The notes under the pieces are model-generated. The model did not search any database, had not been told where the DNA came from, and saw only the letters and a program-made list of their open reading frames with translations. This document shows positions 13,035-19,671 of a DNA stretch of 64,000 bases, piece after piece. The stretch's first letter is position 1. Each line of letters begins with the position of its first letter. A program made the position numbers and the translations under genes. Where the stretch lies: NCBI GenBank assembly GCA_965208325.1, contig OZ242326.1:3840001-3904000 (forward strand), in the 5' to 3' direction. The stretch comes from Candidatus Poribacteria bacterium. GTDB lineage: Bacteria; Poribacteria; WGA-4E; PCPOR2b.

Positions 13035-14072
13035 GTGCATATTCTAAGAATCTGCCTCGCGGCGCTCTTGCTAGTTGCCGCACTCTCATGCGAGCGGGAA
13101 CTGGAAGTCGCCGATTTCAGAGATGATTTCGGAAATTACCAACCGGAACTAAAAATTGAGGGTTTGCTTGACTATGATAATCCGGAAGACTCCATCATTC
13201 GGATTATCAGAACCGAGGCGATTACCGAATCTGATGTTTTCGACGGAATTGACAATGACGGAGACGCCGAAATTGACGAATTTGATGAGACGCTCCCGCT
13301 TATTCAGGATACAACGGCTACCGTCACAGTGACGAATTTAAATTCGGGCGAGGCATACGAATTTCAGTACGTTACGCTGGCGGAGGAGTTGTTCTATCGG
13401 GAATTTCATGAAGATTCCCACGGCGTGGGTCAAACAAGGGTTTTTGGCGATGGAGGCTACACACCAAAAAGTGCGGACGGTTTTCAGGTCGAACTCTTTG
13501 CCCAATACCGTTTAGAAATCTATTCCGAAGCCTTCGACCAGGCCATTACCGGCGTGACCACAGTCTATCCGCCGGTTGAATTCATCGACATTGATACCCT
13601 TTCAACCCTTGACGGCGGCCGCATAACCCTAAATAGAGATGTCGAAAAGACAATCTATTGGCGTTCAGATTTGGAGGTGACGTCATACTTCGTTACCGTT
13701 GTTACCGTATTTGAATTAGACAACGCATTTCTTGAAGAAGAGCTATTCTTTGAGGACCCGCAACTCCATGAGAACGAACGGTTCGTCGAATCTGTCGATT
13801 CGTTTTCATTGTCCAGGGACAATGATTTGACAGAACAGCACGGCGTCTCAATCGGCAAAGAGAGTTTCTTTGTGGGGCGCGAGGCAAATGCCGGCAAAAC
13901 CTTGTCAATAATCGTCGAAGGTCTCAGCCCGGAATATGGGCGTTACATCTTTTCGGCATTGCCGCTGAACGATGCGCAGAGATCCAACCTTCGCGATCAA
14001 GACGGAAAACCCGTCATGGGCGCTTTCGGCGCAACCGCATCAAACACCATACAAGTAGCAATCGAAGAATAA
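13035..14072 (+). CDS. DUF4249-like lipoprotein partner of the TonB-dependent receptor
   Basis: GAGG RBS + GTG, lipobox ALSC, 'LKIEGLL' after the N-terminus, C-terminal 'SNL.....GAFGA', acidic DGIDNDGDAEIDE motif. Confidence 0.7.
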   Translation: MHILRICLAALLLVAALSCERELEVADFRDDFGNYQPELKIEGLLDYDNPEDSIIRIIRTEAITESDVFDGIDNDGDAEIDEFDETLPLIQDTTATVTVTNLNSGEAYEFQYVTLAEELFYREFHEDSHGVGQTRVFGDGGYTPKSADGFQVELFAQYRLEIYSEAFDQAITGVTTVYPPVEFIDIDTLSTLDGGRITLNRDVEKTIYWRSDLEVTSYFVTVVTVFELDNAFLEEELFFEDPQLHENERFVESVDSFSLSRDNDLTEQHGVSIGKESFFVGREANAGKTLSIIVEGLSPEYGRYIFSALPLNDAQRSNLRDQDGKPVMGAFGATASNTIQVAIEE

Positions 14073-14606
14073 GTTCTTGTAGGTTGGGTAGAGCGGAATT
14101 CACCAAAACGGTGTCAGCAGCAGTTTTGCGCTCCAAAATTCAAATCATGCTTGGTTGTAATTAACGCGTAGCGAAACCCAACTCTTTTGAAAACTCCGGC
14201 ACCCAAAACGATTACCGAACGAAAAACCCGTCCCATTTACGCGAAAACTCCGCCGCATTACTTGCCAAACAATTAACACATACAATCCAATTTCTAAATT
14301 CCCCCCTGATAAGGGGGGCTAGGGGGGTTGACACCCGTTTTTATCTGGATAGCGCACTTCAGGTTGAAATTCGCCGATCCATAAGTCATCGAAGGGCATT
14401 GTCAGCATCTACACCACTGTAGGCGGGGCATCTTGCCCCGCAAAGTAGTAGGCACACGCCGTGTGCCGTAATCTTCTGTAAAACCACACTAACCATACAC
14501 AGCAATCGCGTAATCAAGCGATCGAATAGGGCGCAATAGTCTTCGGCGCCTGTATCCTGTAGGAGCAATCTCCGAATCGCGGTACTCATTTAAAACCGAG
14601 TTTTTT
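14073..14606. repeat. Composite GTAG-family REP cluster whose last hairpin is split by the DUF1670 element
   Basis: GTAGGTTGGGTAGAGCG, CCCCCCTGATAAGGGGGG, GTAGGCGGGGCATCTTGCCCCGC, GTAGGCACAC.CCGTGTGCC, GTAGGAGCAATCTCC. 14353-14600 is near-identical to 17863-18100. Confidence 0.85.
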
Positions 14607-14689
14607 ATAGTTTGTATCAAATGACCCCATGAGTTAAACTGATAACAGATGTTATTTCCATCAATTACCATGAATCCATGGAGGTCATT

Positions 14690-15490
14690 ATGAAACCACA
14701 AAGTCATTCAAACTACGGTATCAATCGTCTGGAATCAAAGACGGCGAGAGCGGCAATTATTCAGAAGATTGCGTCAGACTTCAATCTGATGCCTATCCTT
14801 GCCGAAGCCTACTATAATCAGATTTCTTCCTACTTTGCCCAACACGCCGATATTAAACTCACATCAGGCCAAATCTGCTATGAAGCCGTAGCCGCCGACG
14901 AACCCGCAGGTAAACACATTGCCTTAGCCAAAAAGGTCTCCTGCCAACTCACCCTCAATGATGTGCACACCGATCTTGAGGTGTTAGCCAACTATGGACT
15001 TGCAGGACTCAGACGACATCGAATCTTACGGTTAACCAAACAAGCCTATGACCAAGACGCTTTGCTCAGCTATGAAGATTTAGCGGTGCTATTAACCACC
15101 AGCCCGGCGACCGTCAAACGAGACATTCGACAGTTGAAACAGCAAGGGTTTTTTGTAATGACTCGCGGCGCCAAACACGACATGGGCCCCGGCATCTCTC
15201 ATAAAACCCAAATCCTAGAACTGTACTTTAAAGGCTATCAATTCACCGACATTGAGCGAAAGACGAACCACACCGAACGCGCCGTGTTGAGATACTTGCG
15301 TAATTTCACTCAGGTAGCAACCCTCCATCATCAAGACTTTCCAAAGGAACAGATACGGCTCATCACCCATCTCTCTGACCGATTGATTCGTGAGTATCTC
15401 TCCCTGTATGATAAATACGAACATACAGAGCGAATGACGACTTTACTTCATCCTGAACCCGTTGATGAAAAAAAGGGGGAAAACTCATGA
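14690..15490 (+). CDS. DUF1670-family protein A (HTH-containing)
   Basis: GGAGG RBS; motifs GQI.Y.AV...EPAGK, R..RI.RL..QAYDQ.ALLS.EDLA.LL, TRG..HDMGPG.SHK, H...AV.RY. Confidence 0.85.
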   Translation: MKPQSHSNYGINRLESKTARAAIIQKIASDFNLMPILAEAYYNQISSYFAQHADIKLTSGQICYEAVAADEPAGKHIALAKKVSCQLTLNDVHTDLEVLANYGLAGLRRHRILRLTKQAYDQDALLSYEDLAVLLTTSPATVKRDIRQLKQQGFFVMTRGAKHDMGPGISHKTQILELYFKGYQFTDIERKTNHTERAVLRYLRNFTQVATLHHQDFPKEQIRLITHLSDRLIREYLSLYDKYEHTERMTTLLHPEPVDEKKGENS

Positions 15491-16380
15491 GTAAATCATT
15501 GACTCGAACCGAAATCAACGAGAAGAAAATCAGACGTATCAATGATAAATCGTTGCGGCAGTTGCTGATTCATCGCTTTATCAATTCCTATGGGTATGAC
15601 AAAGGCGAAGTGACTGCCAAAGCCATTGTCGATGACATCGTCAAAACTATTGAAGACTATTTCCTGATTCGCTTGCCACTTGATAAACTCGCCGCTGGAG
15701 AACAACTTCCTGATGAACGAATGCTTAGCTATGGTCAACTGGTTTGGATGGCTGTGCCGATTGACGAATATCCACAGAGAGCCAAGTCAATCGTTAAAAC
15801 CCGCATGAAGCCTGTGGTTTTAAGCTTTGTGGCCCCCGAGGACATTGAACACTATTACAGCGGCTTCAGCTCTCGTGAACTCAGAATTCATCGATTGGTG
15901 CGATGGTGTTATCAAGCCTATGACCAAGGGGCATTGTTGACTCAACTAGACCTGGCTGTGTTGCTCAACGTCCGCGACCCAGTAGTGAGTGAGTATGTCA
16001 ACGAGTGGCAAAGCACCAGTGGAAAAATCTTGCCCACTCGCGGCAACATTCACGATTTATCGGCGGCAATTACACACAAGAAGGAGATTATTACCCTTTA
16101 TCTACAAGGGCACCTGACTCCGACCATTGCTGCCAAAACCAAGCACTCCAAAGAAGCTGTTGACCGATACATCCATGATTATGAGTCCGTTAAGATTGTT
16201 CGCACCGCTACCGATGACATTGACAAAATCTCTCAGATTACCAAACTTTCCAAGCGCGTCATCTCTCAATATCTCGACCTAATTCCTCAACATTCGCTGA
16301 ATGACATCAACGCAAACTTGGAAGACGGCAAAGATAACACCGTGCCGTCCAGTTCCAAACCTACAGGAGACTTGCAATGA
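15487..16380 (+). CDS. DUF1670-family protein B
   Basis: ATGA overlap with protein A; paralogous motifs GQLVWMAV, QAYDQGALLTQLDLAVLL, PTRGNIHD, THKK, HSKEAVDRY. Confidence 0.85.
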   Translation: MSKSLTRTEINEKKIRRINDKSLRQLLIHRFINSYGYDKGEVTAKAIVDDIVKTIEDYFLIRLPLDKLAAGEQLPDERMLSYGQLVWMAVPIDEYPQRAKSIVKTRMKPVVLSFVAPEDIEHYYSGFSSRELRIHRLVRWCYQAYDQGALLTQLDLAVLLNVRDPVVSEYVNEWQSTSGKILPTRGNIHDLSAAITHKKEIITLYLQGHLTPTIAAKTKHSKEAVDRYIHDYESVKIVRTATDDIDKISQITKLSKRVISQYLDLIPQHSLNDINANLEDGKDNTVPSSSKPTGDLQ

Positions 16381-16698
16381 CAGCATACGCCTATTATTGC
16401 TTAGACATGGGAAAACAACGTCTCTTTCTTTGGCATCGGCTTGGCACGCCATAGCCATTTTGGTATACTTTGTCACGCTTCTAGCCAAACCAAATGAATT
16501 TCTTGACGGATAAGCTAATTAAGCCAACATAACTCGCTCATTTGATGATGGCTCGAAGTCAGTAACCACGCGCATTCCAACTATCATCAGGTCATTTGAT
16601 ACTATTTCTTCAAAACTCGGTTTCTCCTAATCCTATGATTTCAGCCTGAACAATGTCTCAGGCAAAATCGTAATATACCCGAAAGGAGTTGAAATACT

Positions 16699-17496
16699 AT
16701 GCCAATCAAAACTTTCCGATTCATGATAGTTCTCTTGGTAATCGTCGCTGTGTTTGGACGAATGTGTATCGCCGGTACCTGGATTGACGATTTCAGTGAC
16801 CGAAACCTTCCAGATTGGGGGCCTCCTAGGGGGCCGCAACATTTTGGGGGCGGTCGAATAAATGACGGGGTTAACGCAGGTGTTGTTGATGGACACTTCC
16901 ATTATGAAGGGAAAAAACAACGAACAAGTCATAATTTGAAGAATTGGGGATTAGGGAAAATCCAAGATTTTTCGCTCGAGTTGAAGTTTATGTTTAGAGA
17001 CATCCGAGACAGCCTGGAGAGTTCTTGGACAATTCGATATGCCTCATTTAACGAAGAAAAGGGGGATTTCGACGGGTTTATGAGCTTTTTGTGGTATCCC
17101 GATTCCGAAGGGAAACCCAACGTTTCATTTATTACGATTGATCGCTACGAGTTGAGAGTGCCGGAGGATTTTCCAGAATTGGGGCAAGGCTGGATGCCAG
17201 ATCTCGCTGCAATAGACAGCTTTGCATTCGAAGAAAAGGTCTGGTACACGTTGAGGATTACACGCGAAGAAAACCAATATACTTTTTCGATGGACGATGT
17301 AATTTTATTCGCAGAAGATGATACAGTGCCGATGGGTACGATTGAGCTGTCATTTCATGGATGGTTCACCGTCTGGTTGGATGATTTTACGGTGACCGGC
17401 CCCGATGTTCCGAATGGAGGACCTGGCTTTATGGGAGTCAATCCATCGGCAGAGGGAGTAACGACGATGTGGGGAAAGCTCAAAGCACAGAACTGA
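16699..17496 (+). CDS. Secreted beta-sandwich (concanavalin/DUF1080-like) protein with C-terminal TTMWGKLK motif
   Basis: Signal peptide, 'WIDDFSD', 'WYTLRI', 'G.I.L.......WLDDF.V.GP', ends GVTTMWGKLKAQN. Confidence 0.75.
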   Translation: MPIKTFRFMIVLLVIVAVFGRMCIAGTWIDDFSDRNLPDWGPPRGPQHFGGGRINDGVNAGVVDGHFHYEGKKQRTSHNLKNWGLGKIQDFSLELKFMFRDIRDSLESSWTIRYASFNEEKGDFDGFMSFLWYPDSEGKPNVSFITIDRYELRVPEDFPELGQGWMPDLAAIDSFAFEEKVWYTLRITREENQYTFSMDDVILFAEDDTVPMGTIELSFHGWFTVWLDDFTVTGPDVPNGGPGFMGVNPSAEGVTTMWGKLKAQN

Positions 17497-17637
17497 CAGA
17501 AACCGTTCTCCCGAATATTCTCCCTTTTTCCAAGGGATATTAATCGAGCGGATAGCGAAGGCGAAAGTCTCCTTGTGCAATTTAAAACCGAGTTTTTTCT
17601 TCAAAACTCGGTTTCTCCTAATCTTAGTTTGTGGTCA

Positions 17638-17859
17638 AGTTCTTGTAGGTTGGGTTGAGCGATCAACCGACCGAATAGGGAGGGCGATAGTCTTTTCTTG
17701 CCTTATCCTTATCGCTTCCGATAAACCAAAAGTTCCGCAATACCCAAAAGCGTTGGGTTCGCTGCACCTTAACAATTTCAGCACATATTAAAATACCGAT
17801 ATCCATTGGGCATTTTTCGCGTCTTTCATTTAATCCGCTTAACCCAACCTACAAAAACT
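17638..17859. repeat. REPIN-like unit bounded by inverted REPs
   Basis: AGTTCTTGTAGGTTGGG ... CCCAACCTACAAAAACT; interior shared with 19016-19290 and 22360-22690. Confidence 0.85.
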
Positions 17860-17862
17860 TAA

Positions 17863-18143
17863 GCACTTCAGGTTGAAATTCCCCAATCCATAAGCCATCG
17901 AAGGGCATTGTCAGCCTCTCCACCATTGTAGGCGGGGCATCTTGCCCCGCAAAGTAGTAGGCACACTCCGTGTGCCGTAATCTTCTGCGAAATCACACTA
18001 CCCATCCACCGTAACTGCGCAATCAAGCCATCGAATAGGGGCGCAATAGTCTTCGGCGCCTGTATCTTGTAGGAGCGATCTCCGTATCGCGGCACTTATT
18101 TGAAACTGACTATTTTCTTCAAAACTCGGTTTCTCCTAATCCC
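17863..18143. repeat. Composite REP block, uninterrupted counterpart of 14353-16633
   Basis: Near-identical to 14353-14606 joined to 16606-16633; a third copy lies at ~19310-19561. Confidence 0.85.
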
Positions 18144-18244
18144 AATTGCAGTCCGATTCTCGGATTTAATAGATTCTAACGTGATTTCAGCCTGAACAAT
18201 GTCTCAGACGAAATCGTAACCCTTTAGACAGGAGTTGAAATACA

Positions 18245-19014
18245 ATGCCAATCAGAACATTCCGATTCATGATTGTCCTCTTTGTAACCGTCGCTGTGCT
18301 TGAACGAATGTGTATCGCTGGTACGTGGATAGACGATTTCAGTGACCGAAACCTTCGAGATTGGGAAGGCGGTCTAATAAATGACGAGGTTAGCGCAGGT
18401 GTTGTTGGTGGACACTTCTATTATAGAGGAAAAAATGAACGAGCAGGTTATTATATGAAAAATTTGGCATTAGGGAAAATCCAAGATTTTTCGCTCCAGT
18501 TGAAGTTTATGGTTAGAAACCTCCGAGACCTACGGCAGGGTTTTTTGACTATTGAATATTCTTCATTTAACGAAAAAACGAGGGGTCACGACGGGATTAT
18601 GCAATTTCGTGGTATCCCCATGGGGAACCCAAAATTAACATTATGGATGTTACAATTGATCGCTTCGAGCTGAGAGTGCCGGAAGATCAGCCAGAATTGG
18701 GGCAAGGCTGGATGGCAGATCTCGCTGCAAAAGACAGCTTTGCATTCGAAGAAAAGGTCTGGTACACGTTGAGGATTGCACGCGAAGGAAACCAATACAC
18801 TTTTTCGATGGGCGATGTTATATTATTCGCAGAAGATGATTCAGTGCCGATGGGTAAGATTGAGCTGTTATTTTTTGGAAGGTGTACCGTCTGGTTGGAT
18901 GATTTTATCGTGACCGGCCCCGATGTTCCGAATGGAGGCCCCGGCTTTTTGGGAGTCAATCCATTGGCAGAGGGAGTAACGACGATGTGGGGAAAGCTCA
19001 AAGCACAGAACTGA
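18245..19014 (+). pseudogene. Frameshifted paralog of 16699-17496
   Basis: ORFs 18245-18673 and 18643-19014 align to the N- and C-halves; one base is missing near 18605-18609. May be a sequencing artefact. Confidence 0.75.
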
Positions 19015-19015
19015 C

Positions 19016-19561
19016 AGTTCTTGTAGGTTGGGTTGAGCGGGTTTCACCAAATGATGTACAATTTCACATTTCGCCCTAGGAGTCTAACGACGTTCAAGAT
19101 CCGATGGGCAGAGCGTAACCCAACGCTTTTCGCATTTACGCATGTTTTCCGATAAACCAAAAACTCCGCAATACCCAAAAGCGTTGGGTTCGCTACACCT
19201 TAACAATTTGGGCACATATTCAAATACCGATATCCATTGCGCATTTTTCGCGTCTTTCATTTAATCCGCTTAACCCAACCTACAAAAACTAATTGCAAAT
19301 TATTGCGCCCAATCCATAAGCCATCGACGGGTATTGTCAGACGCTACCCCATTGTAGGCGGGGCATCTTGCCCCGCAAAGTAGTAGGCACACTCCGTGTG
19401 CCGTAATCTTCTGTGAAATCACACTACCCATACACCGCAACCGCGCAAGCAAGCGATCGAATAGGGCGCGATAGTCTTCGGCTCCTGTATCCTGTAGGAG
19501 CGATCTCCGAATCGCGGCACTTATTTTAAACCGGGTGTTTCTGAGAAAACTCGGTTTCTCC
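19016..19561. repeat. REPIN-like unit plus composite REP block
   Basis: Same REP modules as 17638-18143. Confidence 0.85.
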
Positions 19562-19671
19562 AGCCCATTGTACGTCCTTCCCGCCTCAATTCCAACCTAG
19601 ACCTATACCCAACTGTCGGTTCAGCGCTTAAACTCGAAGATATTTGAAAATGTCTGTCGCTATAGGCTACA

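Follow-up and report, generated by a model that had tools for sequence, protein, structure and literature searches.

A probable DUF1670 family signature on a helix-turn-helix module, in place of a tyrosine recombinase domain, in the two proteins of a poribacterial insertion sequence

A stretch of 64,000 nucleotides from a Candidatus Poribacteria bacterium (assembly GCA_965208325.1, contig OZ242326.1, positions 3,840,001 to 3,904,000; the whole stretch is called the window here, and coordinates refer to it) contains two adjacent open reading frames (ORFs), A and B, encoding proteins of the DUF1670 family that share a C-terminal pattern resembling the end of tyrosine recombinases. It had been proposed from this resemblance that A and B form a divergent, heteromeric recombinase with a tyrosine nucleophile, comparable to the RIT or Tn554 systems. 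The analysis presented here leads to a different reading. The shared pattern is probably the signature of the DUF1670 family itself, placed on a loop and on the second of several helix-turn-helix (HTH) modules rather than in a recombinase domain, and the insertion sequence to which A and B belong has no other genes.

ORF A (14678-15490, + strand, 270 aa) carries an A-type and ORF B (15487-16380, + strand, 297 aa) a B-type DUF1670 unit; the two frames are joined by an ATGA overlap, suggesting that B is translationally coupled to A. Both proteins are full-length members of PF07900 (A: E 7.6e-64, 215.5 bits; B: E 1.1e-59, 201.9 bits; gathering score of the profile 25 bits), and the motif belongs to the conserved core of this family. 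A and B are 34% identical across 186 residues (E 2e-27) and, judged by their sequences, they are old DUF1670 paralogues. Translation of A probably begins with the ATG at 14690, yielding a protein of 266 aa, and not at position 14678, because this ATG is preceded by a GGAGG at 14681-14685 and homologues begin there, the first four residues of the 270-aa protein being absent from 85 of 88 homologues. Residue numbers nevertheless refer to the 270-residue ORF throughout. PF07900 carries no functional annotation, and no account of DUF1670/PF07900 was found in the open literature.

The motif region extends in A from R163 to Y206 (15164-15295, + strand), i.e., across a loop with R163, G164, D168 and G170 and then the second HTH, and in B from T184 to Y228 (16036-16170, + strand), with G186, D190, H197, K198, G208, H220 and Y228. 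The pattern is present as it had been described: A reads T162-R163-G164..H167-D168..S174-H175-K176..G186-x11-H198-x7-Y206 and B reads T184-R185-G186..H189-D190..T196-H197-K198..G208-x11-H220-x7-Y228, including G-x11-H-x7-Y in both. The claim that nine residues are conserved was borne out in part. G164, D168, H175, H198 and Y206 are kept family-wide, whereas R163 is characteristic of A-type and K176 of B-type units, and H167 and R205 vary. In an alignment of 88 A-like proteins with approximately 30-83%, mostly 30-45%, identity to A, R163 is found in 88/88, G164 in 84, D168 in 72, H175 in 83, K176 in 73, H198 in 81, R205 in 71 and Y206 in 85 sequences. Conservation of the tyrosine extends to a second data set of 39 loci, in which the individual units were sorted into the types A, B and X by crude score thresholds that leave a few units misplaced. 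Here G164, D168, H175, H198 and Y206 occur in 40/40 A units, with R163 in 39/40, and the same five residues in 24/24 B units, all of which carry Lys176 and have Pro or Ala at the R163 position. The 27 X units retain H175 in three cases (mostly Arg instead), H198 in two (mostly Leu/Ile) and Y206 in only seven (mostly Ile/Leu), position 198 being otherwise occupied by L/I/V and position 206 by I/L/W. On these alignments, the family-wide signature is G-x3-D-x6-H-x22-H-x7-Y, and Asp168-His175-His198-Tyr206 would be its sole family-wide polar part and the best candidate for an active or metal centre. The bare three-residue pattern is low in information: among the 2,744 ORFs of at least 200 aa in this genome, G-x11-H-x7-Y occurs in 65 and G-x11-H-x8-Y in 60, and the longer D-x6-H-x22-H-x7-Y is restricted to the eight DUF1670 ORFs.

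The three dimensional setting of the motif was derived from an AlphaFold2 model of A, calculated with the 88-sequence alignment (mean pLDDT 90, pTM 0.68). The model begins with three helices (residues 13-56), a beta hairpin (65-72/86-92) and a long helix (96-125), followed by a winged helix (128-155), a short helix and the loop bearing R163, G164, D168 and G170 (pLDDT 75-80), a three-helix module (175-184, 189-196, 200-218) and finally a helix pair (223-230, 234-246). H175 stands at the start of the first helix of the three-helix module, H198 in the turn, and Y206 in the third helix, as its seventh residue. In this model the motif is thus on the second of three HTH modules, which follow a small alpha/beta N-terminal domain. 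Structure comparison of the motif module returned the DesR HTH with a root-mean-square deviation of 1.7 Å over 49 residues, and sigma region 4 matches as well. At the sequence level, residues 198-234 of B match HTH_29 (E 0.016) and HTH_23 (E 0.09) weakly, both below the cut-offs, and the equivalent region of the relative P0252 reaches 28.1 bits with HTH_23 compared to a cut-off of 24.6. Positions 10 and 18 of an HTH motif are classical hydrophobic core positions. H198 and Y206 can be assigned to these positions, because leucines of a designed HTH-repeat protein, 8vd6, are aligned opposite both residues and X units carry Leu/Ile/Trp there. The entry 8vd6, which is cited in a protein-design paper (PMC12339374), was the sole profile match among PDB sequences (E 3.4e-4, profile positions 175-231). 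The earlier fallback that the pattern is just a conserved HTH was therefore right about the scaffold, but it does not explain a histidine and a tyrosine at hydrophobic positions in both paralogues.

A tyrosine recombinase domain is not supported: the motif lies on the loop and the second HTH, and profile homology is missing. The reference pattern itself, G-x11-H-x8-Y, was verified at the end of the genome's own XerC/D-like ORF (...AGQPIDRVATILGHSSVNTTKIYT). PF00589 yielded no match to A or B at E<=1, although the same model detects four genes in this genome with a best E of 1.2e-39. Comparison of the 88-sequence profile with the XerC/D-like protein by hhalign resulted in a probability of 0.9% over 20 columns, which fall on the third HTH and not on the motif, and BLASTP of B against the XerC/D-like ORF gave a best E of 0.35. 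Tyrosine recombinases have a catalytic domain of approximately 170 residues with the set Arg...Lys...His-x-x-Arg...His/Trp...Tyr. The span from R163 to Y206 comprises 44 residues, no conserved HxxR is present between H175 and H198 in the aligned DUF1670 units, and the spacing x7 is off by one residue from the x8 of the recombinases. Among the Foldseek/VIA matches listed for the full model and for the N-terminal domain there was no integrase, topoisomerase IB, telomere resolvase or DDE fold, which is an absence from the lists and not an exclusion; what the model places at the motif is an HTH of three short helices. HTH motifs have a generic sequence rhythm with which G-x11-H-x8-Y probably overlaps by chance, and the proposal of a RIT/Tn554-like recombinase is not supported.

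A and B are the sole genes, i.e., the whole cargo, of an insertion sequence of 1,999 bp with the structure 5'-ATAG...CTAT-3' (14607-16605, + strand). It is bounded by a left terminal inverted repeat ATAGTTTGTATCAAATGACCCCATGA (14607-14632, + strand) and a right terminal inverted repeat TCATCAGGTCATTTGATACTAT (16584-16605, + strand), both defined by end alignment across copies; the inverted ends are imperfect and about 22 bp long, and TT stands on both sides. A further internal copy of the end motif, GCTCATTTGATGA (16536-16548, + strand), has three mismatches to GGTCATTTGATAC and might be an additional protein-binding site. The eight DUF1670 matches in the genome form four A+B pairs, and these four copies are 99.6-100% identical over approximately 2,037 nt. 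Eleven further copies in five other genomes (76-96% identical) have the invariant ends ATAGTTTGTATCAAATGACC... and ...GGTCATTTGATACTAT. The partition into ATAG...CTAT flanked by TT fits 15/15 copies; a duplication of 3 bp does not fit, because two copies are preceded by CTT but followed by TTT. No other element with the same ends was found in the genome; apart from the four copies, the search returned just three right-end remnants, each of them solitary. The orthologous locus in a genome of the same genus (G002) is intact and represents an empty site (...GAAACCGAGTTTTTTTCTTCAAAACTCGGTTTCTCC...), and a sponge-metagenome contig bridges 14605 to 16605, omitting the 1,999 nt, although with a depth of 4 this is weak. 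Near-identical copies, inverted ends, a short flanking repeat and an empty orthologous site together characterise a bacterial insertion sequence, and the expectation of a DNA-rearranging element was confirmed by the four near-identical copies and the empty site. The element is mobile, site- and orientation-specific and autonomous-looking. Its distribution is patchy and multi-copy: DUF1670 was found in 9 of 41 related genomes including this one, with up to five copies, and two of the three genomes of the same genus carry none. Matches of A to plasmids were not obtained by tblastn.

The insertion occurs in defined targets. The left half of the target hairpin (AAACCGAGTTTTTT) occupies 14593-14606, with the TT at 14605-14606 as left flanking repeat, and the right half (TTCTTCAAAACTCGGTTT) occupies 16606-16623, with the TT at 16606-16607 as right flanking repeat. 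The hairpin AAACCGAGTTTT-TTCTTC-AAAACTCGGTTT harbours all four genomic copies, always in one orientation, and a further 125 hairpins of this kind are uninterrupted. The target here is thus the T-run in the loop of a hairpin resembling repetitive extragenic palindromes (REP-like). In three other genomes (G018, G022 and G006) it is found behind the final Lys codon of genes that encode a C-terminal domain for type IX secretion, their TAG stop being provided by the element; these domains score 28.9 and 38.7 bits with FlgD_ig and 26.9 and 24.6 bits with Por_Secre_tail, the cut-off being 27. Both types of target have TT followed by C(N0-2)CAAAA, resembling TCAAAT of the element's own ends. An Rfam scan of 14300-16800 at E<=1 returned a chance snoRNA row alone (E 0.3), the right non-coding end (263 nt) has an RNA folding z-score of 0.05, i.e., no structure beyond chance, and no stretch of at least 9 nt in the element interior is complementary to the target hairpin.

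Several remnants and junctions were observed next to the intact copies. The solitary right ends (ATAGTATCAAATGACC, exact or with one mismatch) are situated near 2139015, 2718950 and 4459139 of the contig G000:C1, outside the window, with the rest of the element absent; the one at 2718948-2719055 extends over 108 nt at 82% identity to the right end of the element. At the left junction of one copy in G018 (L025; G018:C1:245300-248300) a degenerate right end lies next to the element (…GGTTATTTGATACTATTT|ATAG…); the order right end, TT, left end is what a tandem or circle-junction-like site would show. The runs X1, X5 and X6 each contain one contig that bridges 14613 to 16605 with a single T between; the hairpin loop in these contigs retains ATAG(TTT) of the left end, possibly as an excision footprint, the matching side being just 21 nt. 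Neither this type of junction nor excision footprints in the form of enlarged-loop hairpins with element ends were found in this genome. In G006 two of the four copies, L035 and L032, have internal interruptions of approximately 0.85 kb and 1.1 kb, respectively. The B frames in G006 are split or contain an in-frame TGA, and these copies look degraded.

The wider family was accessed through 1,237 relatives at E<=1e-3 among 1.84 billion cluster representatives. Among the relatives are fused proteins of 500-950 aa, single polypeptides in which two or three DUF1670 units are combined (A-B, X-A, X-A-B), with no other Pfam domain; in those of 930-952 aa the order is X, A, B. Scanning representative genomes with an alignment of 12 X-A fusions resulted in the 39 loci mentioned above, in Bacillota, Spirochaetes, Planctomycetes, Actinomycetota, Gemmatimonadota, Desulfobacterota and one Thermoplasmata archaeon. 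Comparison of the units shows three putative types, A, B and X, the last being the N-terminal unit of the fusions. In 32 of the 39 loci the A unit is followed by a second five-residue unit or by a truncated downstream unit; four loci have no second unit although more than 2.3 kb would be available for one, and in four the contig end is reached first. The A and B genes are always adjacent in the genomes surveyed. Together with the fused relatives this suggests that A and B very probably work together, which is the part of the heteromer proposal that is supported, while its recombinase part is not. In fusion-type relatives (L040-L078) the B-type unit forms the C-terminal half of a protein of 430-470 aa, of which the first approximately 200 residues are without Pfam match. 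As the present A+B element does not have these N-terminal extensions and is evidently active, they cannot be essential.

A known catalytic domain was not found in either A or B: searches of Pfam, NCBIfam, PHROGs, PDB sequences and the Protein Atlas returned HTH-type matches alone, with only weak transcription-regulator rows from PHROGs and archaeal HTH_23-type clusters with scores <=0.80 from the Protein Atlas. No DDE family was detected for A or B in Pfam, NCBIfam and PHROGs, nor for the two folded halves of A, where the absence from fold lists is no proof. Besides D168, acidic residues conserved in at least 66 of the 88 sequences are E75, D99, E122, E133, D134 and E191, which lie in helices or at the hairpin tip. 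HUH enzymes were considered solely because of the His/His/Tyr composition of the motif; none turned up in the general searches, and H175 and H198 are 22 residues apart in a helical module.

Taking these data together, A and B, the products of adjacent, translationally coupled and in relatives fused genes, most likely act as a heteromer. This heteromer would bind the GGTCATTTGATAC sites at the ends and the TCAAA-like target sequence through its HTH arrays, bend the DNA, and join the element to the TT dinucleotide with a 2-nt stagger. Several points weigh against regarding the motif as no more than a family signature on an HTH. A plain HTH needs neither an invariant His and Tyr in its core nor an invariant Asp in the preceding loop. 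The Asp, the two His and the Tyr appear to be kept in paralogues that are 34% identical, from bacteria to archaea, and they seem to be lost together in X units, which is how an active or metal site, and not a set of packing residues, typically behaves. Moreover, as a catalytic domain was not found, this explanation names no agent for the cutting step, and the heteromer itself is suggested by gene fusions and adjacency.

A tentative alternative that we consider possible but rather doubtful is that A and B constitute a heteromeric transposase whose catalytic class is new, its Asp-His-His-Tyr centre being borne by a remodelled HTH. Arg163 would come from A and the Lys from B, Y206/Y228 or a metal held by the two His and the Asp would cut at TT with a 2-nt stagger at the ends and at the target, and the X unit would be an inactivated paralogue for DNA binding only. 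Two rival readings of the residue set were weighed, both of which appear unlikely. In the first, a tyrosine-nucleophile enzyme would have arisen on an HTH scaffold in convergence with tyrosine recombinases and the 5Y-CAP domain of type II topoisomerases and Spo11, without being homologous to them. Each strand would have its own nucleophile, Y206 of A for one and Y228 of B for the other; the role of the two His and the Asp would be to activate this Tyr or to coordinate a metal, and R163 of A and K176 of B (K198 in its own numbering) would complete a composite site, the A/B heteromer making 2-nt staggered cuts at TT. This is supported by the five residues being present in all A and B units across phyla and lost in X units, by R163 being invariant in A alone and K176 in B alone in a complementary manner, by the fixed TT flanks in all 15 copies, and by the fact that neither protein offers another catalytic candidate. 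In Spo11 and Topo VI-A the catalytic Tyr resides on a winged-helix domain and the cuts are staggered by 2 nt, a likeness that also speaks for it. However, side chains at HTH positions 10 and 18 normally point into the core and away from bound DNA, as might then be expected of H198 and Y206, and three of the 88 A-like proteins are without the Tyr.

In the second reading, the Asp-His-His-Tyr set would bind a metal or form a buried hydrogen-bond network without covalent Tyr intermediate, either stabilising the second HTH or serving as a hydrolytic metal centre. Asp, His and Tyr are residue types classically found as metal ligands. Where they stand, X units and the designed HTH have hydrophobic residues, implying neighbouring positions inside the module, and the lower confidence of the D168 loop (residues 161-180) is as expected for a site that needs its ligand. 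Structural zinc sites, however, usually use Cys, and this reading has little probability in our view.

A third possibility is that A and B only recognise the ends and the target, while cutting and joining is left to an enzyme of the host or to a transposase whose gene lies elsewhere. Xer acts as such a host enzyme for the IMEX elements. In agreement with this, every recognisable module in A and B is DNA-binding or architectural: a winged HTH, two further HTH modules and a weakly HU/IHF-like N-terminal domain. On the other hand, the family occurs across many bacterial phyla and in archaea with always the same gene content, which argues for self-sufficiency, no other element here shares the ends beyond the copies and remnants described, and the target, TT in a hairpin loop or behind the last Lys codon, is not a dif/Xer site. 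An outsourced catalysis thus seems improbable as well. Finally, that A and B are true, very divergent members of the tyrosine recombinase superfamily, heteromeric like the RIT/Tn554 trios, is hardly credible: the local pattern and a 'GHS' ahead of the Tyr helix in many relatives are outweighed by the failed profile comparisons, the lack of HxxR and, in B units, of Arg I, the three-helix HTH predicted for the motif region, the frequency of the pattern by chance, and element ends that are inverted with a 2-nt flanking repeat instead of a 6-8-bp crossover core.

The preferred reading, a DUF1670 signature on an HTH array, can be compared with known systems. With the tyrosine recombinases XerC/XerD, Cre and lambda Int (PF00589) the element shares the local G-x11-H-x(7 or 8)-Y with the Tyr on a helix and the rearrangement of DNA, but, as detailed above, neither homology, active-site set, domain size nor the architecture of the ends. 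IS630 binds its ends via tandem HTH modules joined by a basic linker and duplicates a TA dinucleotide. IS630/Tc1-mariner elements are thus similar in their short inverted ends, in the duplication of a fixed dinucleotide (TA there, TT here) and in end binding by tandem HTH modules; they differ in that here a DDE/DDD domain was not found, two paralogous proteins are present instead of one, and the specificity for site and orientation is strong. Site- and orientation-specific insertion is likewise found for IS110/IS1111 (DEDD) and IS607 (serine) elements, some of which reside in REP-like hairpins and have a 2-nt core common to the element junction and the target. Unlike in these, no DEDD or serine-recombinase domain, no significant RNA structure in the non-coding ends and no target-complementary stretch of 9 nt or more were found here. 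The HU/IHF fold consists of two helices and a beta arm and serves dimerisation and DNA bending. With IHF alpha/beta and HU the likeness is confined to a weak resemblance of the modelled N-terminal domain, for which HU/IHF-like rows remain below significance; a long extra helix and three HTH modules follow, and pairing through the N-terminal domain would be hypothetical.

To our knowledge, the prokaryotic transposases and recombinases characterised so far fall into classes (DDE, DEDD, HUH, serine, tyrosine, Cas1-type) that can each be told by a catalytic fold. Here, the whole protein content of a clearly mobile element looks like DNA-binding modules, so that either a new DNA-cutting centre is hidden in an HTH or an insertion sequence outsources its catalysis, and the five invariant residues provide a short mutagenesis list to decide between these options. 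Annotation pipelines label such genes 'DUF1670' or 'biotin operon repressor' and thereby miss an insertion sequence that interrupts repeats and re-terminates genes of type IX secretion substrates. A description of such an element was not found in the literature searched, ISfinder and subscription-only literature lying outside it; new in the present analysis are the tyrosine-recombinase test, the classification into A, B and X units, the five-residue signature, the 2-nt TT partition and the hairpin-loop target in this lineage.

Finally, the element lies in a composite block of dispersed repeats (window 14072-19600, families D1-D8). The block includes the 125-copy hairpin and a GTTCTTGTAGGTTGGGT(A/T)GAGCG inverted-repeat unit, and many of its repeats have further copies throughout the genome. 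Downstream of the element, two paralogous genes (16699-17496 and 18245-19014) are 82-90% identical in their DNA, in pieces. The second of them is probably frameshifted, because it is split into the overlapping ORFs 18245-18673 and 18643-19014.

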